From Squalus acanthias (lineage: Eukaryota), in the NCBI GenBank assembly GCA_030390025.1, contig CM059432.1, positions 99,636,001 through 99,700,000 on the forward strand: a stretch of 64,000 nt of DNA. The letters run 5' to 3'. Below, one piece after another: positions 1,676 to 63,769 of this stretch. Under the pieces are notes generated by a model. It was given only the letters and a program-made list of their open reading frames with translations. It ran no database searches and was not told the DNA's origin. Every line of letters begins with the position of its first letter. The stretch's first letter is position 1. Made by a program: the position numbers and the translations under genes.

Positions 1676-4020
1676 TCGCTATAAAGAGCGCGAGTGGAAG
1701 AGGAGGCAGTGGACCTGAGCGGGAGCAGAGCGAGAGAGGCAACAACTCAACAGAGGCAGAATCCAAAAGAGTGACGTCAGAGTAGAAAAAGTGACGTTGG
1801 CACAAGGGAAGAAGCTGATTGGTGAGTAGCTGGTGAGTGTTTTTTTTAATTTGAAGTTTATTTCTGTTAAGTTAGTTCTTAGTCTATTAAATAGAGACAT
1901 GGCAGGGCAGCTCAGTCCCATGGAGTGCACATCCTGTGCCATGTGGGAAGTCCTGGTCGCTTCGTGTAGCCAGGACAACCACATGTGCAGGAAGTGTCAC
2001 CAGCTACGGCAGCTCGAGATCCATGTTTCGGAGCTTGAGCGGCAGCTGGCGTCACTGCGGTGCATCCACAAGGCTGAGAGTTACGTGGATAGCACATTTC
2101 TGGAGGTGGTCACCCCGCAGCTTAAGAGTATGCAGGCAGAGAGGGAGTGACCGCCAGACAGAAGAGGAGGACCAAATACAATAAGTTGAGAGGGGAAGTA
2201 AAGATGAAAATAAGATTGGCAAAGAGAGAATATGAGAGTAGAATGGCAGTTAACATAAAAGGGAACCCAAAAATCTTCTACCGGCATGTAAACAGTAGTA
2301 AGAGGCGGGGTGGGGCCTATTAGCGACAAAGAAGGTGATATATGCTTAGACGCACAGGGCAAGGCTAGAATACTCAATGAGTACTTTGTATCCGTGTTTA
2401 CTAAGGAGGTGGAGGATGACAAAATATTGGTAGCAGTGGAAAAGGTAGAAGCAATGGAAGGGGTGAAAATTGATCGAAAAATTGTACTAGAAAGGCTGGG
2501 TATGCTTAGAGTGGTTAAGTCGCCTGGTCCAGATGGCTTTCATTCCAGGTTGCTAATGGAATTGGGGGATGAGATAATGGAAGAGCTTGCCATAATTTTC
2601 CAATCTTCCCTAGATGCGGGGGAAGTGCCTGAGGATTGGAAAGTGGCAAATGTGACACCATTGTTCAAGAAAGGGTGTTAGGACAATCCTAGTAACTACA
2701 GGCCAGTTAGTTTAACATCAGTGGTAGGTAAAATTTTAGAAACAATAATCGAGGAAAAAATTAATGGGCACATGGAGAGATTTAAGCTAATTAAGGAGAG
2801 CCAACACGGATTTGTAAAAGGCAGATCATGTTTGACGAATCTAATTGATTTTTTTGATGAAGTAACAGGCAGGATCGATGAAGGGAATGCATTGGATGTT
2901 GTCTACATGGATTTTAGGAAGGCGTTTGACAAAGTACCACATAGAAGGCTGGTTAACAAAATTGAGGCTCATGGAATAGTTGGGTCAGTGGCAGCTTGGA
3001 TAAGGAATTGGCTTAAGGACAAAAAACAGCGAGTTGTGGTAAATGGCTGTTTTTCAGACTAGAGGAATGGTAGACAGTGGTGTTCCAGAAGGGTCAGTGC
3101 TGGGGCCACTGCTTTTTTTTTATATATATAAATGACCTGGATATTGGAATACAAAGTAGAATTTCTAAATTTGCCGATGACACCAAACTTGGGGGTGTGG
3201 CAAACAGTGAGGATGATACCAATCGACTGCAATAGGACATAGAAAGGCTAGCAGAATGGGCAGACAAGTGGCAGATGGAATTTAATACAGAGAAGTGTGA
3301 GGTGATGCATTTTGGCAGAAGGAACAGGGAGAGGCAATATATACTTAATGGCACAGTTTTAAAGAGTGTGCAGGGACAGAGGGACCTGGGAGTTAATGTG
3401 CATAGGTCCCTGAAGCTGGCGGGACATATTGAGAGAGTGGTTAGGAAAGCATATGGGATCTTGGGCTTCATAAATAGAGGTATTGAGTGTAAAAGTAGAG
3501 AAGTTATGCTGAATCTTTATAAAGCGCTGGTTAGGCCACAACTTGAGTATTGCGTCCAGTTCTGATCACCACTCTTTAGGAAGGACGTGAAGGCCCTTGA
3601 GAGGGTATAGAGATTTGCCAGAATGGTTCCGGGGATGGGGGAATCTTAGCTATAAGGACAGGTTGGAGAAGCTGGATTTGTTTTCATTAGAGCAAAGGAG
3701 TTTGAGGGGTGATTTGATAGAGGTGTACAAGATTATGACAGGTTTGGATAGATTAGACGGGGAAAGTCTGTTCCCACTAGTTGATGGTACAAGGACTAGG
3801 GGACACAGATTTAAGGCTTTGGGCAAGAGATATAGGGGGGATGTGAGGAAAAAAATGTTTACGCAGCGAGTGGTGAGGACCTGGAACTCGCTGCCAATGG
3901 AAGTGGTGGAAGCGGACACACTCAATGTTTGCAAGGGGAGACTGGATAGGCACTTAAGGGAAATAAACTTGCAGGGCTACGGGGATACAGTGGGGTAATG
4001 GGAGTGACTCGATTGCTCTG
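1676..4020 (+). mobile_element. CR1 LINE, internally deleted and degraded (5'UTR, ORF1 N-terminus, then ORF2 RT)
   Basis: ORF1 zinc-finger/leucine-zipper start MAGQLSPMECTSCAMWEV at 1899, homologous to 42578. It jumps at ~2170 into ORF2 (KSPGPDG, ANVTPLFKKG, DFRKAFDKVPH, KFADDTKLGG, FTQRVV) with stops. Confidence 0.93.
2172..3998 (+). pseudogene. CR1 ORF2 reverse transcriptase, disrupted
   Basis: ORF pieces 2310-2681, 2721-3062, 3275-3565 and 3597-3998 carry canonical CR1 RT motifs. Confidence 0.92.
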
Positions 4021-4029
4021 CTCGCACGC

Positions 4030-5470
4030 AGCACTCAAGCTTTGTGCAGGTGGTCAACACTGGAAGAAATGTCCTCTACCCACAGCGAGCCAGGAGGCCC
4101 TCCAGAAAGAAGGATGTGGGACCAGATCACCGATGCCATCACTGTCAGCAGTGTCATCCCCACGACCTGGTTCTAGTGCCCATAGAAGTTTCATGACCTA
4201 TGTCGAGTGGTCAAGGTCAGTGAATGCATCTTGAAAAGCCATCTCCTACCAACTGCACCACTAGCCTCACACACTGCTCAATGCATGACCGTCCGTCCCC
4301 CCCACCCCCCCCCCCCGACCCCATCACTCACCTACCAACAATCTCTATCAAACACAAGGTACACCTCACATTCCTAGCTTCACCGCACCGCCTTGGAGGA
4401 GACACTACTGGCCAACTTTCCCACTAAGCTGCACGGCCGCAGCCCAGAAACAGCTTTTCCAATGGTAAATTTTGAGCATGCGCAAAACTGTGAATGGGCC
4501 ATGTAGCTCCTTAAAGGAGCACCCAATGAAAAAATTAGGGGGAACATTGGTGTTGGCAATTCTGGGCATGGCTGAGCCCTTGGACAGCGGCGGGGCTGAA
4601 AGAATACACGATTCTGGTATCCTCATACGTTATCCTCCTTCTCACATCCCACTTCCCATTCATCCCACAATCTTTTCTGATGTACAAGCTGCACATGGTG
4701 CAAGCATACACCTCTTGCTTTCCTGCCCTCCCCTCACCACAACCCCACCCTTGTCCCTTCCTCCTTTCAGACACCAAGAAATCCAGCCTGCCCCGCAAGT
4801 GGTTGACCAAAAAGAGGGAGAAGAGAGTGAAGAAGAAGAAACAGCTTCACTCAATTTCACATTCCCATTCATCAGCTCCTCAAGGCCGACCAGCAAGGCA
4901 ATCTGCAGTGTTCCCCACTGAAAGTCAGCAGCCTTCCACCAGCCATGCTGCAGCCACTGGGGTAGCACAGTGTTACATAACTCGGATAGGCAAAGGCACC
5001 GCAAGACAGTCACTAAGGAAATGAACAAGTGTGATTAGTTGATTTTTTGATGTAATACTGGATGCATATGTTTACACAGTTGGATTGGAAAGTTTGCTTT
5101 GTGGTGGCTTTTATTTCAGCATTGTGGTCAAGAGGATGCTCTGTGATGGTCAGTAAAAGAGGGAAGGTAAGGTGTGGAACAAATGTTGAAAGGGAAATTG
5201 GGGTTGTGGTCCCTGGTACCACAGGCGGATGTTTCGATCCCGGATATCCCAGCCAGAAAGGGGCTATCTGGGCTGCATTCTTCCTTCCACCTCCTCCACT
5301 TATGCTTCTTCTTCTTCTCTTCTGCATCTTCCTCTTCTGCTTCCTCCTCTTCTGCTTCTTCCTCCTCCCTCTGTGAGCAGCTTGTCCCCTTTTCTGCCTC
5401 TGCTTCATCTCCATGTGATGTTGCAGCCCAAGGGGGACTGCAGCTAGAGCCCCCAAGACTGTGGACAAGT
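4030..5470 (+). mobile_element. Degraded Harbinger-type element remnant (Myb/SANT exon fragment)
   Basis: ~4115-4225 reads WDQITDAITVSSV...W.*CHR.F..VVK|GTCAGT, resembling exon 1 of the Myb/SANT gene at 13126. An acidic EGEESEEEETAS segment lies downstream. Confidence 0.5.
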
Positions 5471-5474
5471 CGGG

Positions 5475-5590
5475 TTTTTTATACTATTCATTCATGGGAT
5501 GTGGGCGTCGCTGGCAAGGCCAGCATTTATTGCCCATCCCTAGTTGCCCTTGAGAAGGTGGTGGTGAGCCGCCTTCTTGAACCGCTGCAG
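5475..5590 (-). mobile_element. 3' end of a CR1-superfamily LINE (same family as 34590-35381 and 36786-37477)
   Basis: ttattcattcatgggatgtgggcgtcgctggcaaggccagcatttattgccc matches the other two copies. Confidence 0.85.
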
Positions 5591-6038
5591 TTAGGATCCC
5601 TCCAAATTAAGTGGACATGCATATTAATGAAGTGGGACCAACCAGGATTGGGGGTCCTAGGCTCGGATTGGATGCTAGAGCACAATGTGATAGTAGACAT
5701 GCACAACGACTGCCTGTGGGGAGGAATGGAGAGTAGCGACAAAGTGGTAGTAATACCTCCAAGACATGGAGAGGCTTGGGTAGTGACTCCGACAGGCCTC
5801 TACGATTTACAAACTTTAATAGCAAAAGTGCCAGAAAGGTACACAGCTGTAGTTAAAGCTACCAAAGAGGTTTTTGCCATGCATAAGCACGATTGTGGGA
5901 GGGTGACAGGGGTAGAAGTCAGGGTAGGAGGAAAGCCCATGCTCCGCCCACAAAAACAATATACCTTCCCCAAAGAAGCAGAGAGGGACTTGGAAAAGGC
6001 TGTAACATCCCTTGTGGAACAAGGAGTCGTGAGACCGT

Positions 6039-6855
6039 TGTAAGATTCTGAAAAGTGTAATAAAACCGCTGCTACCGTGTGGAGATCGAAATTGCGAACG
6101 AATTGTAAGATGATAACGGACGGATTTAAAATGTAAGAAATCAGCAGGTGTTCTTTGTTTGTGAAAACACAAAATGGTGGTCAGTATGTGTTCTTTGTTT
6201 GAGAGGCCACCTGGACAATGATTGACAAGGAAGTCCCGCCCCCCCTACATCTCACAGGAACAGGAACGTGTCATGCGGAAGGAACTCCAATCAGGGAAGT
6301 CTTGGAGTGGGACTGACCTGTCAGAGGGAGGCAGAGTGTGATTTACGATAACCCAGGAGCGGGAGTTTTCAAGTTTTCCGAAGAAAGAACATCAGAGAAC
6401 ACAGAAGAAGAACACCGAAGACAGCGCAGGAGGGAGATGACCCAGAGATGAAGGAGTATGTATGGGAATCAGATATAAGCTTAGATATTGTTAAAGGGGC
6501 ACTTTTATATACTTTGAATTAATAAGTTGCAGGCATATTTATTGCCAAGAGTTCTTTGAATTTATTGCCAAAGTTTCTTCTATGCACACTCGAATTTTAA
6601 ACTATAGTGTGAATAAAGACCAATTTTATTGATCACATCCTTGTCGGTGTTTATATACTGTGAAATATTGTAGATTCCCTCATTGTAACTCTACCTGACG
6701 AAGGGGCAACAGCTCCAAAAGCTTGTAATTTTAAATAAATCTGTTGGACTATAACCAGGTGTTGTGCGACTTCTCATTTTTTACATCCTTGTCTGTCATT
6801 GTTAAGCTAATTCGTAATTACCGAGGTCCGAACAGTAGTAAGAGAAAGTGCTACA
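6039..6855 (+). mobile_element. Solo LTR inserted in the pol RT
   Basis: TGTAAG...CTACA termini; 4-bp TSD CCGT/CCCT; AATAAA at ~6612. Removal restores the frame VRP|LATHVNSP. Confidence 0.85.
6646..6782 (+). mobile_element. Penelope-like terminal-repeat fragment with a decayed hammerhead core, nested in the solo LTR
   Basis: Flanked by an 11-bp direct repeat ACATCCTTGTC (6635-6645, 6783-6793). Similar to 19810-19930 (CTGACGAAGG..GCTCC..AAAGCTTG..AATAAA..GTTGGACTATAACC). Confidence 0.8.
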
Positions 6856-9800
6856 CCCTTGGCTACACACGTGAACTCTCCTGTATGGCCAGTAAAGAAG
6901 CTGGATGGATCCTGGCAAATCGGTTATAGGGTGTTGATCCCTGTTTGTGCCCCTACAGTAGCAGCCGTAGTAGATCTGATTGGTAACATTCCTAGGCACG
7001 CCACGGTATTTACGGTCCTAGACATATCAAATGGGTTTTGGTCCATCCTGTTGCACCCCGAGGATCAGTACAAATTTGCCTTCACCTTTAAAGGACAACA
7101 ATATACATGGACTTGTCTTCCACAAGGATTCCATAACAGCCCCTCTATTTTTCATCAGTGCATGGAAGCATACATAAAGGAGTTCAGTCACCCAGATCGA
7201 CTGATACAGTATGTAGATGGTTTAATATTGTTTTCCGAAAGTGAAGGAGAACATGAGAAACTGTTGGAGGAGTTGTTGGGATTGCTTAAAACAGCTGGAT
7301 TTAAGGTTAATCCCAAGAAGGCACAGATAGGGGAAGAGGAGGTTCAGTTTCTGGGACTCACTATTCGACCAGGGGAACGTATGATAGATGAGGCTAAGCG
7401 TAAGGCGGTGCAGGAGTTACCCCGACCAGGCTCGGTAACTGCTCTCCGATCGTTTTTGGGTCTGACAGGTTACTGTTGGGAATTCATTGAGAACTACGCA
7501 GCTACAGTAGGCCCCTTACTGAGATTATTGAAGAAGGGTGTAGAATGGGAGAGGGACAGGGAATGTGAGGAAGCCTTTGTCCAGTTAAAACGAGACCTAC
7601 AGATAGCTCCGGCTTTGGGAGCTGTCGATCTTGGGAAAAGCTTTTATTTGGAAGTGGCAGCTACAGATGCCAGTCTGAGTGCCATCCTTATGCAGGAAGT
7701 GCACCATCACATGAGACTGGTGGCCTATGCCTCCAGAGTCCTGGTGGAAGTGGAAAGAGGCTATTCCACTTGCGAGCGACATCTGCTAGCTACCTTTTGG
7801 GTGGTAAAACATTTTGCGGTGTTCACAAGAACCCAACCCGTCACTCTAGTAACCCATCACACCCCAACTCGTTTACTCTTAGACAGGAAAATTAAAGAGA
7901 GAACAGTGTCTAGTGTGTGAATAGCTAGATGGACATTACTGTTAGAAGGCATGAATCTTATGGTCGAATCCATTGGAGACCCTAAGTTAGCCTTCAACCT
8001 TAATTACAAGGGAGTTTTAAATCAGGGATACACCCTGAAGGGCGAGACATCTATGTGGATGGCTCGAGTTTCAGTTAAAAGATGTCGTGCTAAGGGCAAT
8101 TACAGTATAAAGGAAAAGGAAGAGGGAAGAGACATAGAGGGACCCTACGGAGCTAGGGATGTAGAAATCAGAAAAGGGATGCTATTTAAGGTGACAAGTG
8201 GGTAGTCCCAGAGGGATACTGGGAGGAATTCATTCAACTAACACATGGAGGTCCAGGGGCGGGACACCCAGGACCCGAAACCACCTGGAAGAGAGTGGAA
8301 GAAGTGACCACACCTTAGGAGAGATGTGGAGGATTTTTGTAAAAACTGCTTGATATGTGCTGCCAATAATCCTGACCCACACAGGAAAAAGGCACCTTTG
8401 GGACATACGCGAAGGGCTGAAGGGCCATGGCAATGTGTCCAGATTGATTTTATTGGACCCTTACCCACTACTAAGAAGGGCAATAAATATTGTCTGGTGT
8501 TAGTGGACAATTTCACTAAATGGGTGGAAGCATTCCCTTGTAAAACAGCCATGGCATTGTGGACTGCAAAAACACTAGTAAAAGAGATGTTCTCTAGATG
8601 GGGACTCCCTCGTGTAGTGGAGTCAGACCAAGGGAGCCATTTCACAGGTCAGGTGATGCAGGCTACTCTTAAACTGTTGGAGATTGAAGGAAAATGGCAT
8701 GTAGCCCACAACCCACAGCCGTCGGGAATGTGGAAAGAATGAACCGTACCCTAAAACTGGCTTTACGTAAAGAACTGAATGAAAGCCCCACCAAGTGGGA
8801 CGAGGTACTGCCTCTAGACAGAGTCAAAGGGAACGTGATATTCTCCGCATGAATTGGTTACAGGGAGACCCATGAGAACCCCAACACACTTGCTGATTCC
8901 TACATTAACAAAGAAACAGATCAAAGAGGTAACCAGGGATAAGTTCCTAAATGACTTGTGGGAAACTCTGAGAGAGTTACACCTGGGAGCTGCCCACAAT
9001 ATCGGAAGGGCTCACCAAGGCAACCGATTACTTCTAGTCCCGAGTAAGCCAGAGGAATGGGAGGTTGGTAGCCAGGTGATGGTTCAAAACTACGCAAGGG
9101 TGGGTGTGTTCGAACCCTTGTACAAGGGACCATACAGTATCGTTGATAAGGCTAGCCCCATGGTGTATGCAGTCCAGCTACCTAAGAGAGTTAAGTGGTT
9201 TCATATTAACCAGATGAAGCTTTTTCAGCCCACAAGCAGGTCAAGGAGACAACAGACCACGATTATGAGCATGATTGGGATGCAGCCGGTTTGCTGGGAT
9301 GATACGGAGGAAATGCCCAACGGCACATCTCACCAGGTACAGTGTGATCCAAGTGAAGCAGGAGCTGTAGAAGCTCCTCGACCCTAGGTCCGGAGTCACC
9401 TTCTATTCACAAACGAGACCTACAAATTCTTACTACCTCACGGCGTAGTAAAAGAAAGAGAATAACACCCCTAAGATTTAGACTTTATTAGTACCAAAAA
9501 CCAAAATGGCTAATGGTAGAGGGAAACTTAAAGTTTTATTGACACAGAAGCTATAGTTTCTGTCCAAAACAAGTAAAACACAGGATTTGCTGAGTGAAAG
9601 GAATCTTAACAGGAATGCTGGAATCTCAGTTTGTGTGAAAGTGTGTGTTAGAAGTGTGGAGGTTTTCTGTCTTTGAAAAAAAGAGTCTGTTGTGTTTGTT
9701 TTAGCTCCACCCACTTTTCTGTACAGCGAGCTAAAAGCTGTTTAACCCTTTGAAGACTTGTCCTGAATGATGGACAAGCATGTGCTGTTTTAAGTTTGTT

Positions 9801-10329
9801 AATTGATTTCAATTTAAATTTGTTAATTGTTTTACAAAAGATAAGCTTCAGCCTTGCAGTTACAGTTGCCAATGTGCCTGGAGGAACAAGGCATGGGTGA
9901 TTGTTTCTTTGTTAATGTGGCTGTGACTTCTTCCTTTCTTTTTCAAGTGATATTGGTTAAAGAAATTGATCTGGATTAAATTGGAGTTATGAGGTTAATT
10001 AACCTATTAAAACCAAACTTTTATTGTGGCCACAGTGAAATTCTGGTTGGTGTAAATTGTGTGCTAGCTTCTAGTTCTGGAAATGAGGAAATCACATCGA
10101 CAATTAGTATTTTTAAGATTTCTGACTAATTTCAACTGTGTGTGACCAGGGGGTAAGAAAGGGAATGCTATTACTGTGTATGGAGTTATTTTGTAGAATG
10201 TTTGTAGTGGTGTTACTAGTGATGTCTGATGTTTTAACTTGCTTTGTGTGTATTGTAAAGATATTGGACATTATTAAATGTAAGTTTATGTTTTCGATGA
10301 AGCCGCGCGAAATGAGGTGTGTATAATGT

Positions 10330-11057
10330 ATGGATCTTGGTTGGTGGAGCAAGCCAGGGAAAACCTATAGTGAATTGCTGAGGCGAGGCTTCCTGCGTGG
10401 GTGACTGATCAACTTTTAAAGGCTATGTCCACCGACCAACTGAATTTGACTATGTGTTGGGTCAGAAAATCGGTGCAAGTATACCCGGTGAAACAGTACT
10501 GCAACTGGCTGAAGCACCATACACCGGGAATACCAGTACGGTAAACTGATCTGTCCTATTGCGACGGGAACATTTTATTTTACTCCAGTCCGACCTGTAC
10601 GGATTGGAGTGTGGGTGTTATTAAATGTATATTTGCATGGCCAACTGACTATTAATAGAAAAGATGAGTTAAAAGAGCGGTTGCACCAATATGTTGCTGG
10701 ATTTGGATACAACATACCACCCCTGCCTGACTACCTGATAGGGCTCATGAAGAGTATTAATCAGTCTCAAAAACATTATTACATTTTGAGCCAGAAGAAT
10801 CATGAGATAAGGATGGAAATACTTAAAGTCGGGGACAATTCGTCTTGAAGGAATATCGGCATGAATATCAAGGTTCATCCTTGGATAAGGATTATTTCCC
10901 ACGCTCTAGTCATCATTCAGTTGATAATTGTGTTCTACCTGTTAACGCTAACGTGTCGTGTCAAGAGACGGCGCAAGCAACAAGAAATAGTCAGGTTACT
11001 GCAGAAAACGCAGGATGTTTTCGTGTAAGTAACTGTAACTCAAAAAAATTTTGGTGA
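10330..11057 (+). pseudogene. env: env remnant of provirus 1 (internal pieces, C-terminal heptad region, TM)
   Basis: YGSWLVEQARENL ~ YGAWLLGEGRSNL; GFGYNIPPLPDYL..SQKHYY ~ FFGYKIPPLPEHL..SQKHFY; PWIRIISHALVIIQL ~ SWIRMASHILVVCQL of the env at 60-62 kb. Confidence 0.8.
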
Positions 11058-11076
11058 CAGTTACTTGAGGGGCTAC

Positions 11077-12499
11077 TGTAGAAAGTATAAACAGACCCTT
11101 AATTTTAATATTTCGTGAAATGCTTTGCTAGGCAAAAAGGTTTTACAAGGTGAAATAAAGTTGGTAAATGTAACAAGCAGTCTTTCACTGATAAGGCAGG
11201 AAACATGGTTGTGACTGCAGGGGGTAATGATAGTCAACAGAGATAAACAAACTCCCTTAGTATTGTAGACATCGGGCTGGATTTTGATACTGGGGCGGGT
11301 TGGGGTCGTGTCATCCACTTTTCGTGTTATCCACCCGACTGCAATTGGATGTGGGAGATTGATGCGATTTTCACCTAATTGGCCAATTGAATTCCAGCAT
11401 GTGGGAACCCATGAACCAATTAGTGTTTTCAGTCTGAAAGTCGCCTCTGATGATGTCATCATTGCTGCTGCATTGAAGGTCTTCAGAGACTGCCTGGCCT
11501 TTGCTGTGAGAGGACCTGGATGCAAAATGAGCAGCAGCTCAGAGAGAGAGAGAGAGATCCAGCCAGCCAAATGTGCTCCCGCCAGGTTTCACAATCGTGG
11601 TTCAGAACAGGCGTGCTTCACGTAGAACAAGGGTTAAAATCACAAAGACCTTTCAAAATGGCATTATAGAGCCAATTTGGTGCTTGTTAAGGGCCTTAAC
11701 AGCCTATCCCGTCTCTTAAAGGAGGGACGCAGTCGGGACCAGCAGACACGATTTCATGAAAATTGCATGGAGGCGGGATGGAGGCGGACTTGTGCCTGCC
11801 CACCAGTTTTCGCTATTTTAACCCCCCACACGCCTCCAAACCCGCCTCCACGGGTCAATGAAAATCCAGCCCATCATGTCTCTGGTGACTTTTCTGAGGT
11901 GAGAAGTCAAACCTTTGAAGTTTTGAAATGCAGAATACGACGTAACTCATGAACTGAACCAAGTGGTTTTCTGCCACCTTTGTAAACTTTAGGAGTGAAT
12001 GAACAATTTTGGGCTGTGATAAGGACAAACTGAATAATAGCCACACAGGATGTGTGAGTGTAAACGTTTGACAACTCAAAACAGCTCAGACCAACATTAA
12101 AGGAACATTTCACTATCTCTGAATGAATGATTTAATACAAAAGACAAGGAAAGCTGTATAAAACACAGGTGGCTAAAGAAAATCAGCACTGCAGTCAGAA
12201 GAAGGTGGCTTGGCCAGTCATCTCGCCTACGAGGATCAAGCTGCAGTTGGAAGGAGGGGCCTGGCCAGTCTTTTCCCTTACGAGGACCTACAATCAACGC
12301 TGGACGAATCATCGGCGGGTGGTTGTATGTATGATTTCTTGTAATATTATTGGTGAACTGCTCGAATTGTGTTTGGGGTTTTGAATCTGTCTTAGGAACA
12401 ATAAAAGGTTAAAGACAGAACCCGTGTCTGGTGTAATTTCTCATAAGTCTCAAGTCCGAACTCTATAACCTGTTGGACGGGGCAAGGGGTAATTCCGCA
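11077..12499 (+). mobile_element. 3' LTR of provirus 1 (contains a MITE)
   Basis: Follows the PPT; TGTAGAA...TTCCGCA imperfect inverted ends; TATAAAA ~12156; AATAAA ~12400. Right end approximate. Confidence 0.65.
11274..11872. mobile_element. PIF/Harbinger-type MITE family A, copy 1
   Basis: TIR GGGCTGGATTTT/AAAATCCAGCCC; 3-bp TSD ATC; inverted homolog at 32784-33456. Confidence 0.9.
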
Positions 12500-13125
12500 T
12501 GTCTTACAAAAGCAAATGCATAGAATTTTTCTACATGGGGAAAGGCAATAAATTATGAAGGCATGCACCATTGCTATATAATCCTTTATAAAATATTGAT
12601 AAAAACCATACAAGGCAAGAGAGTTGAGATGGATTTTTTTAAACAACTACATGGAAAATAAATGTAAATAGACACATAAGTGAAACAGAACCTTGAAGAA
12701 AATGTATATGGTTTTGTATTTCACACAGAGGAAGATAAAAGGCACTTTATTCAAATAGTGATGAAAGCCTTCATTTAAAGGCTAAATTAAAACTGCCACT
12801 TGTTACTCAATCCTACAATTGAAAGATTTATGAATTAATGTGCAGGAACACTTGGGGCTCGATTTTAATTCCCGAGGCGGGTTGGAGTCGGGTTGCGTGG
12901 TGGGCGGGTTCCGGAACCACTTCCGGCGGGATCAGCTGCTGATGTCCGATTTTAATGAAATCAGCTTGTTAAGTTCATTGGGGTGCGTTGGCTGGTCCAA
13001 TGATTGTGATCGGGTCGGCTGGCCGCCTCTGATGACATCATCATAGCAGCTGGTTTTAAATCTACCATTCAGCCTAAGCCTTTCTCTTCTGGATTCTGAT
13101 ACTCAGTGATATTGCTCCAACCACA

Positions 13126-14990
13126 ATGACTTCTTCCAGAGGCAAGGCAGCTCCTCGATTTAATGATGACTCCCTCCATGTTCTTGTCGAAGCTGTAAGA
13201 GGGCGCAGGGAGATTCTCTTCCCTCCTGATGGCCGGAGGAAGCCTCCTCAGCGGACCAAGGCAGCCTGGCTGCGCATTGCTGAGGAGGTCAGCGCCAGGT
13301 CCATTTATGCACGGTCATGGATCCAGTGCCGAAAACGGTTGAATGATCTTGTGCGAACATCAAAAGTGAGTATCCTATCACACTTACCTTCAATCTGCTT
13401 CCCTTCTCTTCTCATCACTGGCACTCTGCATTGTAAGCCTGCTCCTCCACATCCCACCTTACCCTTACTTCCCTTGCACCCATTCCTATCCATCTCTGTC
13501 TCTGCACAGAATCACTTCAGCATCCTGCCTATGCACCCCTTAGACTCGCTCTCACTGTTATGCAATGACAACAACTAACAACTAACAACACACGCCGGGA
13601 GCTAGCTTCCTCTTGGCACCCCATCTTCATCTCACTCAAAGCTTCTATGGTAGGGATTAATCACACTCACTCCATCACTGTGGTTGAAACTCTGCTTGTG
13701 TCCCCCTTTGCAGAAAAGATAGCCCACAATAAGAGGGAGAGAGCACTGACTGGAGGAGGTACACCTACCCTATCAACGTTGACCAGTGCCGAGGAGGCTG
13801 CACACAAAATTGTTGGAGGTGGCGAGGATCTGGAAGTGGGCGATGGAGAGACGGGCACACGAGAGGAAGCTGGTGACATAATAGAGTTTCATCCCTCTCA
13901 TTGACATTTAGTGATTGATTGCAATGGCATATGATGTTCATAGAGAATTGTGTTGTATCATCTGCTCAAAAGGATGTGTCTTCTACATCAATATCAGCTG
14001 TCTAACTCATGCCTTTACTCTCCCACAGGACCATCGAGTGCCCCCCTCCCCACGATCCAGGACGAAGAGCCGGACAACTCCTCAGAGGAACCTAAAGCCT
14101 CTGAGGGAGCAGCGTCACCAGGACTCAGTGCACCCAGCACCAGCGCAGCAATGCACACGTCAGTGATGCCATCGCGAGTTAGAGTAGTGTTGCAACCTGG
14201 TCTATCATAGCGCACAAGTGAGCATCAGCAGATGGTGGAGACAACGACAGCAGTGGAGAGTCCTCGGCGGAGGTCTCAGGACTCTCCTAACTCTGCTGAG
14301 CTGCATGCAGATGCTGTGCCTCTGCAAGGGTTTGCCTCCAGGGTTAGTGCGAGTGTGGATAGAATGGAGTAGTCCATCTCTAACATCAGCACTGCCGTGG
14401 TGGAGGCAATGGTGCATGAACGCACCACCATGGATAGGATGGCAACCTCTGTGGAAAGGCTGGCTACCTCAGTGGAAAGGCTGGCTACCGCCATGGAGGA
14501 AATAAGTCGCCAGAGTCAGGAAAACATGGTGACTGTTCAAAATAGATTGTCATCTCTGAAGGAGCGATGGGCAGCTATTGAGCAGAGAGACCAGAGCTTC
14601 ATGGACATCCTTGTGATGAGGACTGTCAGTGCAGATACAGGTCCTCATGGCCCCCTGATGTGCAGCAAGGTGCTCTCCAGCCACTTGCCAGCACTGAAAT
14701 GCGGCTGACCTATGAGAGGGATGTTGTTGGCAGGACACAAGGAAGTGTGGGATCCTCTCAAAGCGCTCACACGACCATGCCACTGTGGAGCCCTCGGTCA
14801 GAGAACCACTTTGCAGAGACAACTGAGATGGCCGTTTCAGCCCCTGCACAGCCGCAGGAAGAGCAGACTGTTGCAGAACTCTCCCAGGCTCCCAAACCCA
14901 GAGGATGCCCGCCAAAGGCATCTAAGCAGGCGCAGCATCCAAGTCAGCAAGGTGCCTCGACATCTGCTGAAGCCACATGGGAAGCACTGC
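13126..14990 (+). pseudogene. Harbinger Myb/SANT-like DNA-binding protein gene, 3 exons, disrupted
   Basis: Exon 1 13126-13365 (APRFNDDSL..AWLRIAEEV..RSWIQCRKRLNDL) ends at GTGAGT. Exon 2 ~13714-13872 (EKIAHNKRERALTGGG..LTSAEE). Exon 3 starts at ~14029 after cccacag (Ser/acidic region, then coiled coil). Frameshifts and stops are present. Confidence 0.8.
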
Positions 14991-16755
14991 TGTAAGGTTT
15001 CCAAAATTTGCAGATCCCCAAAACCTAAGGAAAAAGGACATTGGAATTACCTCAGAGTGATAAAAATGCATTTGGGCCTAACATAAGGAATTTAAGACCA
15101 AAAACCAAGTTTTGGTATTTTAAAAACATGTCTGGGCCTGTAAAGGGAGAAAAGGCTGTGAAGGAATTTGAGGTCAAAACCTCAATTTTGGACATTTTTC
15201 AGGGTCAGGGATGAAAAGCCCTGAGGAAAAATGACTTTGAATGAAACCCTGCAGTCACAGAAACAATATAGGCTGCGGGGAGCGGGTGGTGAGGCGGTGG
15301 ACAGCTTTTGGCTATTGGGGCCCAGTCAAGCTGTCTGGAAAATGTTTGCACTGCAATCCAAGCAGGAGGAAGAGCCTCATCCAAAACCTCACAAACACAT
15401 CCAAAAATGAATAATCCAAGACCCCTTTTGAAAATCCCCAGGCCCAAACAGGATGCTAGGAGCCTGAAAACAATAAAACATCCAGTACACCCATCACCCC
15501 ATCAAAACCCAATTAGCCAAGTATCTACAGGGACAGATTAACAAGCCCGCCAAAAACCTAAGACAAAGGGGTCGAGATTTGGCGCGTAGATAAAGGCCCT
15601 GCCTAAACGGAAGACATTGGAAGCCATCAGGACAAGTAAACATAAAGTTGAAGCCATCAAAACTTAACGAGCCCGCCAAAACCTAAGACAATGGGCCTGA
15701 AACAGTATAATTGAGGGCCTATTCCCCCAGCACACACAGCAAGCTACTCACAGCTACAGAGGGCCACACGACACGAGCAGGAGGAGGAGAGAAGCAGCAA
15801 GGCCACGAGGCAGACCCGGGGCGAGATCGGAGGCAGGGATAGACAAGGCTAGGCAAGGGCTGGAGCTGAGACCACTGGGAGCGAGTCGGCATCGCTCAGT
15901 ACACGGTCCAGCACTAACAGCCACTAGCCAAGGTCACTGGAGGCTGGGAACGAGTTGGCATCGCTCGACCCACGGTCCAGCCGCAGGAGGTACTGCCCCG
16001 ACAGGCCTCCAACGCAACAAATCGACGACCAGAGCCACCAAGGGCTCCACGAGGTAGACCGCCACTCAAAAGTACCGCGGGGACCAAGGCCCCGCGCAAC
16101 AACCAACCACCAGACAACCACGACCTAAACCAGCCAACCAGGGGAAACCCGAAGAAACGCCAACCCTACAACTACTCCTGGCTTACCCCTAGGTAAGACT
16201 TGCATGCAAAGACTCTAAACCTAAAGCTAAAAGCAAATAAATCGGGTACTTACCTGATAATTCCACAACCGCACCCTACCGCATCTGCGGACTCCACCCG
16301 ACTGAGGAGCCCTCGCAAATTCCACAGACCGGTACCACATGGGGGCAGCTAGGCCCCAAAGGACAAAAAGAGAGAACCCCAAAACGCAATCAACTTACCT
16401 GGTTGGATTTCGAACTGTCAAAACCCCTGTTTGGTGAGCATTATCCCTGATCTCCTGAAATCAAAACTTAGCTAGATAGTGGGATTTTTGGGAGGGATAA
16501 GGTTTTTTTTATATATTGTCTTTCTCCCTCGCCTGCACCGTGTGTTCCCCAACCTGTTTAAGTGTTAAGTGTGTTTTAAGTTTGTTACCTTTTTCTTTTT
16601 ATAAAAGTCAAAACTCTTTCATCCAAACCTGTTGTCTACTGCATCTTTGTTCACAACCACCAAATAAGTCCAAGGCCTAGACCCAGGGGCGTGGGAGCGA
16701 TTCGAACCGCTCACTGAGTCAGAGGTGAGGCTGACCCCTACACACCACCCCCTAC
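14991..16755 (+). mobile_element. Long solo LTR (1765 bp), same family as the 3' LTR of provirus 2
   Basis: TGTAAG...CTACA; perfect 4-bp TSD CTGC; first ~155 bp near-identical to 63075-63230 and last ~95 bp similar to 63300-63395. Confidence 0.93.
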
Positions 16756-17855
16756 ACTGCGTAGAAGCATGCGTAAGAGAAAGATTAAGCACATATAGTC
16801 ACAAGGGGACTCACGTGGGTGTTTTGTCTTTTTTTTCTGACAGTTCTTGGTTTATGATCCTTTTGTCATGTGTAAAAGAAAAATTATGGCCAACAGTTGA
16901 TTGTGTGGCCTATGTGTTCTGGGAAATGGCAAAAGCGCATTGAGGGCTCAGGGCGACTTGCTTTTGTAGTGCTGATGGTGAAAGTGATAGGAAATAACTG
17001 GGTATAGCAGAGATGATGTATGACGTTGGACAAAATGTTGCCTACAATTAAGGAGCCATATGGTAGCCACCTATGGTTGAAGAGTAAGCTGATGCGACTG
17101 TGGCATGGCAGTGTGAATATCCTGCTTGACGGGCAGCAGTGAACTGGAGGGATGCTGCATTGGTCACAACAGGGCACGCAAGGTGCCTCTCATCCTCCTC
17201 CTCTTCCCAGGAAAATCTGCGCTGAGCCACGTGGCTGCTGCTCCTCCGATTATGAGGACCAGGATAAAAGACATAAATTTTCCCCATCCCCTTGCTATAG
17301 ATTTCATTTGAGGCAACAAGCTTGCAAGTGCACAGTCGAAGTGGCCTGAAATTATTCCATTCAGGTCACACTGCAGATGGGTGTCAGATTGTACAGTCAC
17401 AAGGTCAGTAGATGTACAAAATCTTATCCCATACCTACAACAGCAAATTTGTTGCATTTGAATGTTAGCCATGTTTCAGGGGCGCTTTTAAAGTGCTCCA
17501 CCAATTAATATAAATCCTGTCCTCCAGCAACTCGTCTCCTTGAACCTGGCCTATATCTGACAAGATGGGAAACAGGAGCCAGAAGCACAAAAATGGGAAA
17601 CCACTTTCAAAATAGGATTAACAAGGCAGTTAACAGGCTCTTAACTGCCTTAACGACCTGTCCCACGGTTTCAGTCAGGTCAGTTTGGGAGCGGCTGAAC
17701 AGACACTCAGGAAAATCGGATGGGGGCGGGGTGGAGGCAGGTTGGATGTCTGAAGCCATTTTTTCCGATTTTTGCTACAGACCCGACTCCAAACCCGCCT
17801 CCTCAGGGCTATTAAAATTGAGGCCTTTTACTCTGTCACAACCTTTAAAGATCTT

Positions 17856-20375: not shown

Positions 20376-21251
20376 GGGGGAGAAATTCGGTATCGCCCCG
20401 TTTGGGGCGCAATTATCGGCCGGGCACAAAGTTTAGCGCCTGTCGCTAATTATCGCTTCCGACTGCAAACTTGGCTTCTATCACCCCTGGAGGTGATTGG
20501 AGCGCTAAATCAGGCACTACACACCTCTCTTAAGGCGCTAACGCCGAGGAGCGAGGCACTATCTCAGAGCGCTGGCGAAGCTCATGTGATGTCAGTCAGC
20601 AATGGAACACAGACACACTGGCGCTGGCCAGTTCTTAAAGGGGAGGGTCAATCTTGCTCTCCATCCACACCTTGCTCATTGCAGCCTTGAATCTCGGCCT
20701 GGAGAGATCTGTACATCAAATCTGCTGGAAAGAACAATGGAGAAGCCCAGAGAAAGATGTCAGAGTGCAGCCCCCATAGTCTCTTCTAAATTGATGCAAG
20801 AAAGATCAAATCAAAATGAACCTGCAAAGTGCTGCTCAGTACCCAAAACGCCTCAACACAGCGTTGAATATCTCCAGAAGTCTCTCTCACTCAGAATGCG
20901 TGGTGCAAAAATGTCGCCGAACAAAAAGGCAGGAACCAGTCGCCTTTAAATAGCGCTCCCCCAGTCCCTTCCTGACTGCAAAACACTCCCCTCAACCTGT
21001 CGTTGCTAGCGGCAGGCGGTAAGGCAGGGGGCGCCACTCAATATCCGGTCCGGGGCGTTGCACGCTCGACTGACGTCACGATCTGCGGGCACAGGAGATC
21101 GTGGCGGTAGTGTTTAGCACGGCCGCAAAATGTCTGGTCAATTACGCGAGCGCCGCAAACATCGCCGTGCACGGGCGCTAGTTGCTTTGCGCCCCATTAG
21201 CGCCCTCTTAAGGCACTAACGGGAGGCGCAAACCAACCGAATTTTTCCCCC
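20376..21251. mobile_element. PIF/Harbinger-type MITE family B, copy 1
   Basis: TIR GGGGGAGAAATTCGGT/ACCGAATTTTTCCCCC; TSD GTT/ATT; homolog at 24314-25207. Confidence 0.88.
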
Positions 21252-58216: not shown

Positions 58217-58540
58217 GGGGGCTAAATTCGGTTCCCTAAGAGGGCGCTAATGGGGCACAAATCAACTAGCGTCTGGGTGTGGCGCCGCTAATACCTCCTG
58301 CGAAATTCAGCGGGAGGTTAGTGGCAGTGCTAACAGTTAGCGCAACGCAGCGCTGCGCCGCCGGTGATGACGTCATTGCCGTGCGCAGCGCCCCGCTCGT
58401 GCCCCGGCTGTAATATTGGGTGTCGCTCCCCGACTTACCGGCGGACACTATGTCCGCCGGGGTCAGGGGGGCCTACTTGCGGCCGGGGTGGCGCTAGTTA
58501 AAGGGGAGGTGGCGGCCGCCCAATTTTGTAGCTTTGGCCC
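58217..58540. mobile_element. Truncated Harbinger MITE end related to family B
   Basis: GGGGGCTAAATTCGGTT..TAAGAGGGCGCTAATGGGGC matches the reverse complement of 21180-21251; abuts the retroviral pol. Confidence 0.65.
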
Positions 58541-60296
58541 CGGACTTAAAGCAGGCCCAAGCCCAGGACACAGTCCTCAAGACTGCCCTGAACAGGCTTG
58601 AAAAGGGGAAGAAAGTAGAGGGCCCGTACGGCGCAGCAGCCATCACCGTAAAGGAAGGCATGCTGTTCAGGGGGGAGCAGTGGGTGGTGCCGCAGCAGCA
58701 CCGAAGGGAATTCCTCCAACTGGCCCATGAGGGTCCAGGAGCGGGGCATCCCGGACCTGAGACCACCTGGCAACGGGTGGAACAGACAGGATGGTGGCCA
58801 GGACTCAGGGAAGATGTCCGAGTTTTGTGCAGGCTGCCTAGTGTGTGCTGCTAACAACCCAGACCCCCAGAAAAGGAAGGTGTCCATGGGACACATCAGG
58901 AGGGTAGAGGGACCATGGTAGTCGATCCAGATCGACTACATCGGGCCCCTACCCAACGCCCAGGGAGGCTTTAAGTACTGCCTAGTCCTGGTGGATGTGT
59001 TCTCAAAGTGGGTAGAAGCATTCCCATGCCGTACGGCTACCGCATTGGGTACGGCTAGGATCCTAGTCAGGGAAGTGTTCTCACGGTGGGGACTACCACA
59101 GTATGTGGAGTCCGACTGGGGGAGTCATTTTACTGGGCAGGTTATGCAAGAGACCCTCAGGGTGCTCGGCATAGAGGGGAAATGGCACGTCGCCCACAAC
59201 CCGCAGTCATCGGGTCCTGTGGAGCGTTTAAACCGTACCATTAAGGAAAGGCTACGGAAGGAAACGGGAGACTCACCCAAAAAGTGGGTAGAACTCTTAC
59301 CATTGGTCTTAATGGGGATCCGAGCCAGCCAGTCAAAAAGCACGGGGTATTCCCCACAAGCTCATGACTGGTAGGGTTATGCGGACCCCCAGCCATGTGC
59401 TAGCCCTGGTGCTCATGGAAGGGCAGCTCAGAGGTGAACCGGGACAGATTCGTCAGGAATCTATTTGAACACCTTAAACAGGTCCACTGGCAGGCTGCGA
59501 GCAGCATGGGAAAACAGCATCGGAGTAACCGATTGCTGCTGAAACCCCGCAAGCACCACGAGTGGGAGGTAGGAGACCAGGTCATGGTTAGGAATTTTGC
59601 CCGGGTGGGGAGTTTCGAACCACTGTACATGGGGCCCTACCACATTGTGGACAAGGCAAGCCCCATGGTCTATGCCATAAAGATGCCCCGCCATACAAAG
59701 TGGTTCCATATCAACCATGCAAGCTGTTTAAACCCGAGAAAAGGGAACAGTCAGCAAAGGTGGACCACACCAAAGTTAGAAATCCCCGGCCAGCAGCTGT
59801 GGCAGACTCACAGGCTGCAGCGGTGGGGACAGTGGCTTGTATCACAGGAGGGTACACTCCACCGATTATGTGGGACTCAGGCACACCCCCAGTGGCCAGA
59901 GTCCTGAAAAGGTCTCCTCACACACCACAGCCTAAACTGCCGTGGTCACCGGTACATCAATGGGTCAGCCCAAAGGGGGCTGCAACCCAAAAAGGAGTGC
60001 CCAAGGCCAGGGAGCGTTCAAAGGTTAGGGATCCCCAGCCTGCAGGGAACCCACAGGACAGGGACTCAGCAGCCACACCAAAGGGGGCAGTGTGCTGTAG
60101 CACAGGAGGGGACACTCCCGGGATTGTCAGGGATTCAGGAAAACCCTCAGTTGCTCTAAGAAGGACTTTCGAGGTCCTGCGGTACAGGCCACCTTACGCC
60201 CAGGCATGGAGGCTGCTCAGAAGCTGCCCAAGGCAGAGGCCATGCAGGGATTTACCTGGCCGTCCGGAGACGGGCGGCAAATGTACAGAGTTTTAA
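58541..60296 (+). pseudogene. pol: pol 3' part: integrase (HHCC, DDE, GPY) with a long Pro-rich C-terminal extension
   Basis: LAHEGPGAGH..CAGCLVC; QIDYIGP; ESDWGSHF; VERLNRT; GPYHIV; closely related to provirus 1 IN. Confidence 0.92.
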
Positions 60297-60426
60297 TTTT
60301 AGGTGTTTTACAATTTTGTAGTTTTAGGATTTTTAAGAATTCTAGTTTTAAGGATTTTAGTAAATAAGTTTAAAAGTTCTCAAGAATCGATCACCTGTCA
60401 AGCCAGAGAACCTTCTCGGGACATGG

Positions 60427-60451
60427 CTGTCTGTTTTGTGTGTCCCTACAG
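60427..60451 (+). promoter_or_regulatory. Putative env splice acceptor
   Basis: ctgtctgttttgtgtgtccctacAG lies 13 nt upstream of the env ATG (60465). Confidence 0.65.
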
Positions 60452-60464
60452 AGAGGAAATCGGC

Positions 60465-62772
60465 ATGACAAGGGTTCTGCTCCTGCTCACCCTGGTAGGG
60501 GTGAGCATCGGTGACCGAGGTGACGTGGAGAACTCCCACATCTGAGTGCTTGGGAGAGAGAGCACCGGTCGTCACCGCAGGAGGTGGCGAACGGGGAGTG
60601 GAGGAGCTCGCCATCTACTTCCACGAGGGAAGCTGGCCAGGGTGGCTGGGGTCCAACTCTACAAGATACTCCAGCCAGACTGGGTTCACGTACCGGGAGG
60701 CCTCCCTCCCATGCCCCACGGTACAGGTCGTTGCCACAAGGGTCAGTGTCACCGAGGGGAAACGTGTGTGCCTTACCTGCAAGGGACGAATTCCCCTGAA
60801 TAGGTGGTGGTGGCTCGGGAAGCTAAGCAGCAACGCAGGGGACCATACAGCCGACTGGGAACGACTAGGGAACGACACCTACCGGACAATCACCGGGACC
60901 CATGGGGGAGTGAGTGTGTGTTGGGATAAGTGGTGGGAGTCGGAACAGGGAGTCTATGTCTGTATGTGGGGGTCAGAGAAAGCCTGCCCCACAGGCATAT
61001 CCATCATCTTCTCCAGACAATGGCAAGACGCCGGGGAGGGGATGGGGTGGGATTCTAGCCTACATGCGTGCGCGCTCCCACACTCCCCGACCCCAGTCAA
61101 TGCCACCGAAATAGTAGCCCGCCCCCGAAAGCCCCTGCCCACGACCACGACCTCACGGACAGTAGTAGAGGTGTCCTACCACCACCAAGGGACCAGAGAA
61201 CGGGCTAGTACTAGTACCGACCGAAAAGATGCTATACCAGGGGGTACACTATGCAGTAGCTTCAGTTATATTAAACCATACCGAGGTACACTTACCTAAA
61301 TGGTGTCCTAAGGAGACAGAACAGCTATACCAGGCCCTGCTAAAGGAAATGTTTAGAAAATTCTATGAATTCGACTTTGCCAACATGGACAAAGCAGAAC
61401 TGTACAGATTACACCCTGGGCGCAGGGAGACAAAGAAGGGGGACCTGGAACGATATTTTCACAACCTACAATACAGGATCCTCTGTAATAAATAGCCTAG
61501 ATGACATAGAGCTACAAACACAGATAAATGGTTTAAAAACCCAGTTGAGGAAGATCCTAAAGGGAGAGAACACAGTGGTAGGCTCAGAGCTACACGAGGA
61601 CCAAGCTACGACGGTCCATCTAAAAGAGATTATTGCTGAGCTAGAGAGACACGCTAAAACAGTGAATGCACTTATACGGGAGGACAGGAATGCTTTGGAT
61701 CAGGCTGCACAGAATGAGGTGTGTGTGCTATACGGGGCATGGTTGCTGGGTGAGGGTCGCAGCAACCTGGAGGATTTAAAACAAGGTTTAGTCCCCTCCT
61801 GGATTAGCAACAAATGCCTCGCAGCCCTCCACCCGTTTAGCAATTCGCTGAGCCCATGTTGGCTCCGCCTAGCCTCTGAAGCCTACCCCTTCCCTGTAGA
61901 TTGTGGGTGTTCCAATCACTCTATCATGGGGATAGTAGTGAGGATGCTGGTCATGGGTGGGACAGCCCGACCCACACTGGTATACAGGGTGGAGAACATT
62001 GGGATCATTCAAGGGGGTGCACGCATCCATTTTGCAGCGGTCCCACCTTATGTCATAAAGTAGGAGCACGCTATGACAGGTACTGACCTCTCTGGGTGCC
62101 GGAGCCGGGGTTCACACATAATACTGTGTCCCCAGCACTTGAACGCCTACTCTAGACCACAGTGCGGGTTTAAAGCTGCTGGTGTACCATGGAGGTAATG
62201 TCACAAAGCCATGTTCCCCCACAGGTAGCATTCATAGGGGGTGGGACATATTGTCACCACAAGTGCGCCCCACTACCAGCATGGACAGCATTTTTGGTGT
62301 CCGGTGAGTGACAGCAGTTTCTGCTTTAAACCCGAGGCAGAAGTTCAAGTGACCCAGGAACGGATTGTCCCCATTCCTGAACCCTCAACTGTTCACCTCA
62401 CTAAGGGAAAACATTACCAACCTGCAAAACTATGTCACCTTCTTCGGCTATAAGATTCCTCCTCTACCCGAACACCTTACCGTCTTACTTAAAGCTGTAC
62501 AGGTATCACAAAAGCATTTCTACACCCTAGAACAAAAGACACTCGAGATAGGGGCTGAGATTTTGGCCATCATGGTTCCACCCTGGTGGGACATTTTTGA
62601 GAATATAGAGGTTCCTTCCTGGATTAGGATGGCCTCCCACATCTTAGTGGTTTGCCAGCTCGGGATAGTCTTGTACTTACTGTGTACAAAATGCAAGGGG
62701 AAGGACAGAATGCTCCATTCCCGGCATGAGAAAGCCTGGGAAAAACATTACAATAAAGTTTATCAAGTATAG
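60465..62772 (+). pseudogene. env: env: signal peptide, Ig-like domain, Thr/Pro stalk, furin site, class I fusion subunit, TM; several frameshifts and a stop
   Basis: MTRVLLLLTLVGVSIG; RQRR|GTWNDIFTTYNTGSSVINSLD at 61428-61439; heptads LQTQINGLKTQLRKIL; Cys-rich region; TM HILVVCQLGIVLYLLC. Confidence 0.87.
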
Positions 62773-63074
62773 AACAAGCCTGAATTGATTCTAAAAGAAA
62801 TAAAGAAGTTTTGTGATCGTGTGTTATTTTTTTTCTAGTTATGTATTTTGTTTTTTTTTCCCAAGTGGTGCAGGGGTGTTGGACCCCCTCTGTGCTTGGA
62901 TGTGTATGTATTATTGATTCTTACCTGTATGTATTGGAACACTACACCAAAAAGGGGAATGTGTGTTTTTGGGTTTTAGTTTAGGTAATACAGGGGAAGG
63001 TTGGCTTTCGAGGATCAGGAAGTTTGTCCACCCAGGACGATACTATAGTGACTTAAAGTATCGAAGGGGGGGAC

Positions 63075-63395
63075 TGTAAGGTTTCCAAAATTTGCAGATC
63101 CCCAAAACCTAAGGAAAAAGGACTTTGGAACTACCTCAGAGTGATAAAAATGCATTTGGGCCTAACCTAAGGAATTTAAGACCAAAAAACAAGTTTTGGC
63201 ATTTTAAAAACATGTCTGGGCCTGTAAAGGGACAAGGAGGTGGGTTCGACCTCTGTAAAAGCAGTTTGGTTATTGCAGTTAATTACACTGTCTGATATAG
63301 TCAAATAAGTCCAAGGTCTAGAACCAAGGGCGTGGGAGCGATTTGAACTGCTCAGAAGTCAGAGATGAAGCTTACACAAAACAGCACCCCCTACA
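63075..63395 (+). mobile_element. 3' LTR of provirus 2, internally deleted (321 bp)
   Basis: Both ends match the long solo LTRs; the middle ~1.2-1.4 kb is missing. Confidence 0.9.
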
Positions 63396-63769
63396 ATAGG
63401 GTAGAATGTGGGAGGCCAGCCAGGAGTATGTTGGAATAGTCAAGTCTAGAAGTAACAAAGAAGGTAAGTAAAACAACTCTAAAGGAATAATTTTGTGTAT
63501 GCAGACTAAATGCATTCCTAATACCAACAAGGTCAGAATAAACAACCATGTTCCTAAATGGATTAACAAAAAAAACTCCACAAATTCTGACATGAGAATA
63601 TTAATGAACATAAGAAAATGTGGAAACACATTAAAAGAGTCAACAGAGGGGGCAAGAGGGACCGAGACAAAAACATGGCAATAGGGGCTAAAAACTGCAG
63701 CAAAAAAAAGCTTCCAGCACTACAACAGCAAGAGGGCAGTCAGACAAGAGGTGAAAGCCATAAAAGATG

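Follow-up and report, generated by a model that had tools for sequence, protein, structure and literature searches.

Layout of the provirus

A 64-kb stretch of contig CM059432.1 (the window, 64,000 nucleotides in all) holds the remains of an endogenous retrovirus (ERV) at 5592-12508 on the plus strand, here called provirus 1. The original prediction described it as a lokiretrovirus-type element. The element is instead probably a dead ERV of an unclassified, early-branching lineage on the canonical side of the split between lokiretroviruses (Loki) and canonical retroviruses. Provirus 1 is cut at 5591 by a high-copy repeat, and gag, the 5′ long terminal repeat (LTR) and the active-site half of the protease are absent. 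The repeat (5475..5591, plus strand) abuts the 5′ break and has 89% identical copies at 34591-34704 and 37362-37478; it is presumably related to the tail of a short or long interspersed element (SINE/LINE). Loose contig ends and a very high read depth are found at 5591.

The first coding segment (5592..6038, plus strand) is stop-free and comprises the C-terminal half of the protease, a linker with the sequence KHDCG and the first residues of the reverse transcriptase (RT). It matches the closest intact Pol, P0001 (1145 amino acids), at 40% identity over 192 columns (tblastn, E=8e-39). The RT is then split by a nested solo LTR of another family (6039..6855, plus strand, 817 bp), which has TG...CA ends and a 4-bp target duplication with one mismatch. 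This insert holds a 148-bp repeat at ~6635-6782 and gives no blastn match to the LTR of provirus 1 itself; contigs without it were found in three of four runs. The fingers, palm and thumb of the RT follow at 6856..7557 (plus strand; Pfam RVT_1, E=5.8e-31). The motifs LDISNGFWSI, QYKFAFTF and LPQGFHNSP, on which the original prediction was built, are present in the frame starting at 6811, and the YxDD catalytic motif reads YVDG.

Downstream of the RT lies a tether, a gypsy-type RNase H fold without the catalytic D, E and D (7558..8007, plus strand; stop codon at 7918), recognised by Pfam PF17919/PF17917 (RT_RNaseH_2, 4e-21; RT_RNaseH, 1.2e-17). An RNase H lacking its catalytic Asp had been predicted at this place; the dead tether stands, with the correction that all three acidic residues, not the first Asp alone, have been lost. 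Five gypsy rows with D/E/D intact were aligned with the tether; at the corresponding columns provirus 1 has A, H and H, and its close relatives show these residues at two or three of them. A second, active-type RNase H begins in a shifted frame at 8019..8069 (plus strand), with the first strand IYVDGSS. As predicted, the start DIYVDGSS lies at 8046-8069, outside the RT-tether frame, and the remainder is deleted at ~8070-8072. The segment 8019-8069 matches residues 619-635 of P0001, where its Pfam RNase_H domain (628-770) starts; homology resumes at ~8072-8107, so that ~170 residues (P0001 636-808) are missing. When 7951-8250 was shuffled, 0 of 2000 shuffles reached the real score with P0001 618-635, and the same test with three shorter queries gave 0, 0 and 54 of 2000. 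Read depth is flat across the deletion, and contigs in all four runs align across 8101, with a crossing of 8070 not visible. P0001, which is 65% identical to provirus 1 over RT-tether, carries both the tether and a full RNase H. Among the 10 best relatives (top eight at 48-65%), precomputed annotation places an RNase H (PF00075) after the tether in seven.

The pre-integrase linker and the integrase occupy 8072..9387 (plus strand) with several frameshifts. The HHCC motif, the DDE core and a C-terminal domain with a GPY-like motif can be assigned (Pfam rve, E=8.5e-17; H2C2, 1.4e-4; p58_C/SH3, ~8e-5). An AT-rich stretch with approximate edges (9470..10290, unstranded) stands in place of the 5′ half of env; it is partly high-copy repeat, with a depth peak at 9567-10068, and has no match to any of the env homologues. 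Two env remnants interrupted by stops follow on the plus strand. The one at 10293..10541 represents the middle of the fusion subunit and is 36% identical to the env of a second element of the window, provirus 2 (E=4e-18), and 35% to the sawshark protein P0313 (E=3e-15). The other, at 10681..11025, has a single stop and contains the stalk helix, the transmembrane segment and the tail, with 47% identity to the skate protein P0122 (E=1e-21) and 49% to provirus 2.

A purine-rich tract (11067-11076) precedes the 3′ LTR (11077..12508, plus strand), which has the ends TGTAG...TTACA and an AATAAA at 12400. The element had been predicted to stop at 12499; its LTR runs on to 12508, where a contig of another insertion stops matching and beyond which the depth falls to single-copy level. 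Inside this LTR, at 11270..11874 (unstranded), lies an inverted-repeat element resembling a miniature inverted-repeat transposable element (MITE), with a 93-96% copy at 32782-33460; a contig lacking it was found in run X2. Rfam gave no match in 4000-17000. With its 5′ half lost, RT split, RNase H deleted, integrase frameshifted and env gutted, this copy is, judged by sequence, inert. Since no 5′ LTR is left, dating by LTR-LTR comparison is impossible for provirus 1.

Reverse transcriptase and integrase relationships

An RT alignment of 78 rows was built after removal of two short rows. For the maximum-likelihood (ML) tree of 57 rows and 247 columns (LG+G4), 21 of the 78 were dropped as redundant or long-branch, and 39 of the 78 entered a mixture-model tree. 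It should be mentioned that the RT trees are without Odin, ERV-L, ERV4, CmiERVs and fish foamy-like ERVs; for ERV-L, a pattern scan for its RT type found none. The references for snakehead retrovirus (SnRV), P0241 and L018, are 99% identical, and their motifs agree with the SnRV rows in the supplement of PMC7947760. As Loki references we used eight proteins from databases, identified as Loki through their motifs and hosts, which are not the sequences of PMC7947760 itself; they come from Labeo, Synaphobranchus, Nothobranchius, Oryzias, Latimeria or unnamed sources, and 7/8 have PFGY(A/S)NSP in the aligned RT. The foamy, gamma, delta and alpha/beta rows were taken from IMG/VR pattern scans and labelled through motif and tree position, WEHV1 being named. 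The Ovex1-like protein P0193 carries all three Ovex1 motifs quoted in PMC2717909.

In the 57-row tree, Loki forms a separate clade (support 100/99) that is sister to all other retrovirus rows, the window included (100/98). Provirus 1 falls among 14 rows, Pols from frogs, coelacanth and unnamed sources, which group at 94/96 with LG+G4 and at 89/86 with the mixture model. Together with the Ovex1-like P0193 and turtle rows, this group makes up 19 rows (95/89, LG+G4) that lie outside SnRV, foamy and orthoretroviruses (97/97, LG+G4). The mixture model of 39 rows recovers Loki at 100/100, the canonical side at 98/98 and SnRV+foamy+ortho at 98/98. The relatives of provirus 1 thus appear, from these sequences, to be chicken Ovex1, ERVs of turtles, and frog and coelacanth Pols labelled 'NYNRIN-like'. 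Provirus 1 lies outside the clade of the foamy rows (100/100), and a branch with 100/99 support sets the gypsy rows apart. The prediction of a basal retrovirus rather than a Ty3/gypsy element is borne out by the early-branching canonical-side position and by the second RNase H start; membership of the spumaviruses was rejected on the foamy clade of the rows sampled, which contain no fish foamy-like ERVs. Viral contigs searched with the window RT gave no related locus.

A lokiretrovirus, on the other hand, is contradicted by the RT. The approximately unbiased (AU) test rejects grouping of the window clade with Loki (p=0.0036) and of the wider 19-row group with Loki (p=0.0044), and the Loki RT signatures PFGY(A/S)NSP and PLSRWPM are absent from provirus 1. 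In the available supplement of PMC7947760, PFGYANSP occurs 31 times and PQGFHNSP 0 times; ISNGFWS occurs three times, and both places displayed are SnRV rows. That provirus 1 is not a lokiretrovirus can therefore be regarded as well supported.

RT identity to provirus 1 is 68% for P0001, ~43% (42.6%) for SnRV, 32.6-37.4% for Loki (34-39% for the eight Loki rows in a separate comparison), 32.5-35.5% for foamy viruses, 27.6-35.7% for gypsy and only ~34% for the Ovex1-like protein. For the tether, identity reaches 30-41% with Loki and 24-39% with gypsy, against 22% with SnRV; nine foamy rows give no blastp match to it. For RNase H, the identities to Loki, SnRV and gamma rows all lie at 25-30%, and this domain is uninformative for placement. 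The integrase is 76% identical to P0001, 51% to the Ovex1-like P0193, 41-44% to Loki and 36% to SnRV; the P0001 integrase scores 130 bits to SnRV compared with 207-218 bits to full-length Loki rows.

The integrase tree of 45 rows (three removed before; CGIN1/NYNRIN absent; root arbitrary) joins proviruses 1 and 2 with P0001 at 100/100 and nests four Loki rows among the window-clade rows at 87/91. RT and integrase trees thus disagree on Loki, which is sister to all canonical rows in the former and nested in the window clade in the latter. The Loki-like tether and integrase explain the lokiretrovirus impression given by the element. To our knowledge, a dual RNase H is present in all retroviruses; the tether with a second RNase H is therefore not diagnostic of Loki, being found also in SnRV and retroviruses generally.

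Envelope, copies and surroundings

Provirus 2 (58537..63406, plus strand) contains an integrase, a more complete env with an immunoglobulin (Ig)-like N-terminal arm and a furin site, and a 3′ LTR, and is 67-70% identical to provirus 1 at the DNA level in the integrase. Like provirus 1 it has lost its 5′ half, where gag and any smc gene would lie. Its env open reading frame (ORF) at 61344-62060 is 78% identical to P0313. In provirus 2 and the elasmobranch env proteins, an N-terminal arm of ~200 residues leads to a GPxxG motif and the furin site, behind which come an extended helical region and a transmembrane segment. Named env homologues come only from Pristiophorus japonicus (sawshark) and Rhinoraja longicauda (skate), in line with the cartilaginous-fish host that had been predicted and pointing to an elasmobranch as likely. 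The arm (60538-61146, plus strand) gives weak Pfam Ig_3 hits, with E=0.53 in the window and E=0.0027 in P0311, and in P0002, a relative from a frog, pol is followed by an Ig-like segment (Ig_3, E=0.012). The AlphaFold model of the arm is all-beta with a predicted local distance difference test (pLDDT) score of 42, too poor to use; Foldseek with this model returned 0 matches at E<=0.001, the top rows being mostly antibody V domains (best E=0.017).

A fusion-type env had also been predicted. Provirus 1 retains only two or three env patches, so the type is not readable from it alone; the lineage nevertheless probably has an F-type Env, a lead-level assignment that leans on provirus 2. PF00523 is the first ESM Atlas match for the provirus 2 env (0.94, 202 features) and, weakly, for the SnRV Env (L018 6131-9535; 0.94, 213 features). 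The layouts of the two are alike by eye, with a long N-terminal arm followed by a GPxxG motif. An Ig-like C-W-YxC pattern is seen by eye near the N-terminus of SnRV Env. BLASTP between provirus 2 env and SnRV Env was not significant, a PDB sequence search with P0313 found no match, and the AlphaFold model of the F-like part of SnRV Env (pLDDT 38.8) is too poor to use. The foamy Env is structurally F-like (PMC11468914); the accessible portion of that paper mentions neither SnRV nor Loki, and what is accessible of 10.1101/2021.11.23.469661 treats gamma- and beta-type Env only. The weakly F-like SnRV Env and the F-like foamy Env imply that an F-type Env is not specific to Loki.

Further features accompany provirus 2. 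A 72-bp imperfect duplication (59825-59896 / 60083-60154) lies in the proline-rich tail after its integrase. Copies of its LTR family, longer than the 3′ LTR at 63074-63406 and 72-96% identical, occur at 14990-15151, 16117-16766 and 55479-56988 (minus strand). In P0121 of Pristiophorus japonicus, a 'Niban 1-like' model, the first 250 residues are window-family env; either the gene prediction is wrong here or a host gene has acquired an env exon.

The pol stretch is partly present in 20 public runs from eight studies with seven coded organism labels, and there are no RNA runs among the matches listed. In the four runs examined, many different contigs cover 30/30 bins and some are free of the nested inserts, from which it follows that the provirus 1 family is multi-copy. 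Two organisms of one study, A and D, have contigs that span the junction of LTR and flank at 12508; these include 47 and 39 LTR letters and differ from the window at 25/339 and 21/331 places. The insertion seems to be common to several species and, if these contigs are orthologous, is older than the splits between them. With a mammalian rate its age would then come to ~15 million years, and with the rate that PMC4422223 assumes for sharks to ~150 million years. The P0126 cluster (Aquarana, Lithobates) has 24 members; among the 15 listed, 11 are Pols of the window lineage with 1207-1218 amino acids, which suggests recent activity of this lineage in ranid frogs.

Elsewhere in the window, two related ORF remnants (4000-4250 and 13078-13578) flank provirus 1 at a distance; we take them to resemble the Myb/SANT protein of PIF/Harbinger transposons. 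A G-rich sequence repeated in tandem every 12 bp runs from 1 to ~1800, and the segments 20376-21252 and 24314-25208, 87-96% identical and ~3.9 kb apart, are possibly LTRs or a local duplication.

Placement among early retroviruses

The position of the window lineage as the earliest canonical branch is, on the present sequence comparisons, favoured but not proven, and several results weigh against the explanation preferred here. Under the mixture model the 19-row group dissolves into an early canonical-side polytomy. A union of the window clade with SnRV (p=0.39) or with mammalian foamy viruses (p=0.17) is not rejected by the AU test, nor is a single Huo-like clade (p=0.079). The integrase branch (87/91) is below the strong-support threshold, with the SnRV alternative unrejected there as well (p=0.085). 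For the envelope, the Atlas recognition values of provirus 2 and SnRV Env (1661 and 1522) are under the threshold of 2300, Pfam Fusion_gly has no match in the env sequences, and the hhalign alignment of the env profile with that of SnRV Env, although collinear across 238 columns, is not significant (E=0.053). Where exactly the lineage belongs among the early canonical ones is thus not fixed.

These uncertainties leave most room for membership of the SnRV clade proper (clade Huo, with elephant-shark CmiERV lineage I), with the basal placement as a rooting artefact, which we regard as unlikely but worth serious consideration. SnRV has the highest RT identity among the named viruses, the ISNGFWS motif, a similar env layout and the unrejected AU topologies on its side, and SnRV-like ERVs have been published for the elephant shark (PMC4422223). 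Both ML trees, however, separate provirus 1 from SnRV by a branch of 97/97 or 98/98, and a plain SnRV sister is further weakened by the tether and integrase, which are much less alike in SnRV than in Loki. The conflict between the RT and integrase trees could also reflect an old recombinant, in which a canonical-type RT was joined to a Loki-derived integrase or Loki received its integrase from the window lineage; swapping of RNase H and integrase domains has been argued in PMC7947760. We find this rather improbable, because a slowly evolving integrase with common ancestry gives an identical pattern, the 87/91 support comes from an arbitrarily rooted tree and the RNase H identities are flat.

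A true lokiretrovirus is a very improbable explanation of the same Loki-like tether, integrase, dual RNase H and probable F-type env. It would be the first in cartilaginous fish, Loki having been found in 0/6 chondrichthyan genomes in PMC7947760, but the RT lies outside Loki in three trees and lacks the signatures. In addition, those of the eight Loki Env rows that are not partial have the GP motif directly behind the signal peptide, a place at which provirus 2 carries ~200 further residues. Scarcely credible is a Ty3/gypsy element with a captured env, or a foamy-like ERV: the tether is about as similar to gypsy RNase H as to Loki and foamy grouping is not rejected by the AU test, yet gypsy is cut off by the RT tree and keeps D/E/D, a second RNase H is present and the tether finds no foamy match. 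Odin was rejected on the env remnant and the canonical-side RT, with no Odin sequence in the tree; Odin is described with a dual RNase H, no env and an RT sister to Loki (PMC9040795). The alternatives named with the original prediction left out the real one, an unclassified retrovirus of Ovex1/SnRV grade.

The early-branching canonical-side lineage that we prefer resembles several known systems without coinciding with them. Ovex1/SpeV-like elements share the early RT group (95/89, LG+G4), the tether with RNase H and an integrase piece at 51%. RT identity to Ovex1 is only ~34%. In birds Ovex1 exists as one copy; its RT is inactive, and its third ORF is in part related to a class I ERV (PMC2717909), whereas the window family is multi-copy in a fish and has a probable F-type env. 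Ovex1/SnRV relatives are unclassified (PMC4299795, PMC2717909). SnRV, whose clade Huo occurs in all vertebrate groups (PMC6001957 section 7), shares LDISNGFWSI, the tether with RNase H, the long Env arm and the Atlas match, but has an insert between RNase H and integrase and a 3′ ORF, neither of which is seen in the window element. Loki is defined by an RT clade sister to canonical retroviruses, tether and RNase H, a PF00523-like Env, a CGIN1-group integrase, a Gag capsid fold and optional smc (PMC7947760). It is like the window lineage in its dual RNase H, similar tether and GPxxG motif starting the F-like part, with the integrases grouping at 87/91, and differs in its RT clade and in the window env's extra arm and other sequence after the furin site. 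The Pols P0002, P0004, P0006, P0007 and P0126 (frog, coelacanth), at 48-52% over RT-tether and with equal domain order, carry 'NYNRIN-like' as an automatic database label, not as the name of a described virus family; several are intact, in contrast to the broken provirus 1. ERV4, a crocodilian/turtle RT clade, has no GPY/F motif and a 5-bp target-site duplication (PMC4299795); the window element differs in its GPY-like motif. Most RTs of cartilaginous-fish ERVs belong to clade III (10.1101/2023.10.17.562709).

An active ancestor, as known for the family, would have copied its genome with an RT carrying a catalytically dead tether and a second RNase H and inserted the copy with a Loki/CGIN1-type integrase. 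For entry it would have used a class I fusogen that is cleaved by furin and resembles paramyxovirus F in type, at the lead-level strength of the env assignment, and the N-terminal Ig-like arm may have bound the receptor. The Loki-like parts are most likely ancestral features kept in both lineages. More tentatively, and with less confidence than in the canonical-side placement itself, we raise the possibility that the shark/frog/coelacanth lineage with Ovex1 is the earliest canonical branch, outside SnRV+foamy+ortho, which keeps a Loki/CGIN1-type integrase, a gypsy-like tether and an F-type Env. In the portions available of the literature, including PMC10435555, PMC13524379, PMC12583693, PMC11521997, PMC9447858 and PMC13709493, neither SnRV Env as F-like nor the RT/integrase mosaic of the window lineage was found described; Repbase, most subscription papers and the supplements of PMC6001957 and PMC4422223 may cover them.

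The presence of a tether, RNase H and F-like env is insufficient to call a lokiretrovirus, and shark elements need an RT tree. The value of the locus is phylogenetic, as it bears on the make-up of the first retroviruses. The Loki and Odin papers (PMC7947760, PMC9040795) contrast the F-like Loki Env with the canonical Env and leave one or two env gains open. The combination of a canonical-side RT, a Loki-type integrase, a probable F-type Env and a weak SnRV F-signal favours a single F-type origin. If the earliest-branch proposal is true, and with the Env of SnRV and foamy viruses F-like as well, all retroviruses would descend from an ancestor with an F-type Env, which only the orthoretroviruses replaced or remodelled, contradicting the independent-origins env scenario listed in PMC9040795. 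The window lineage would in that case also be a candidate for the source from which mammalian NYNRIN took its integrase.

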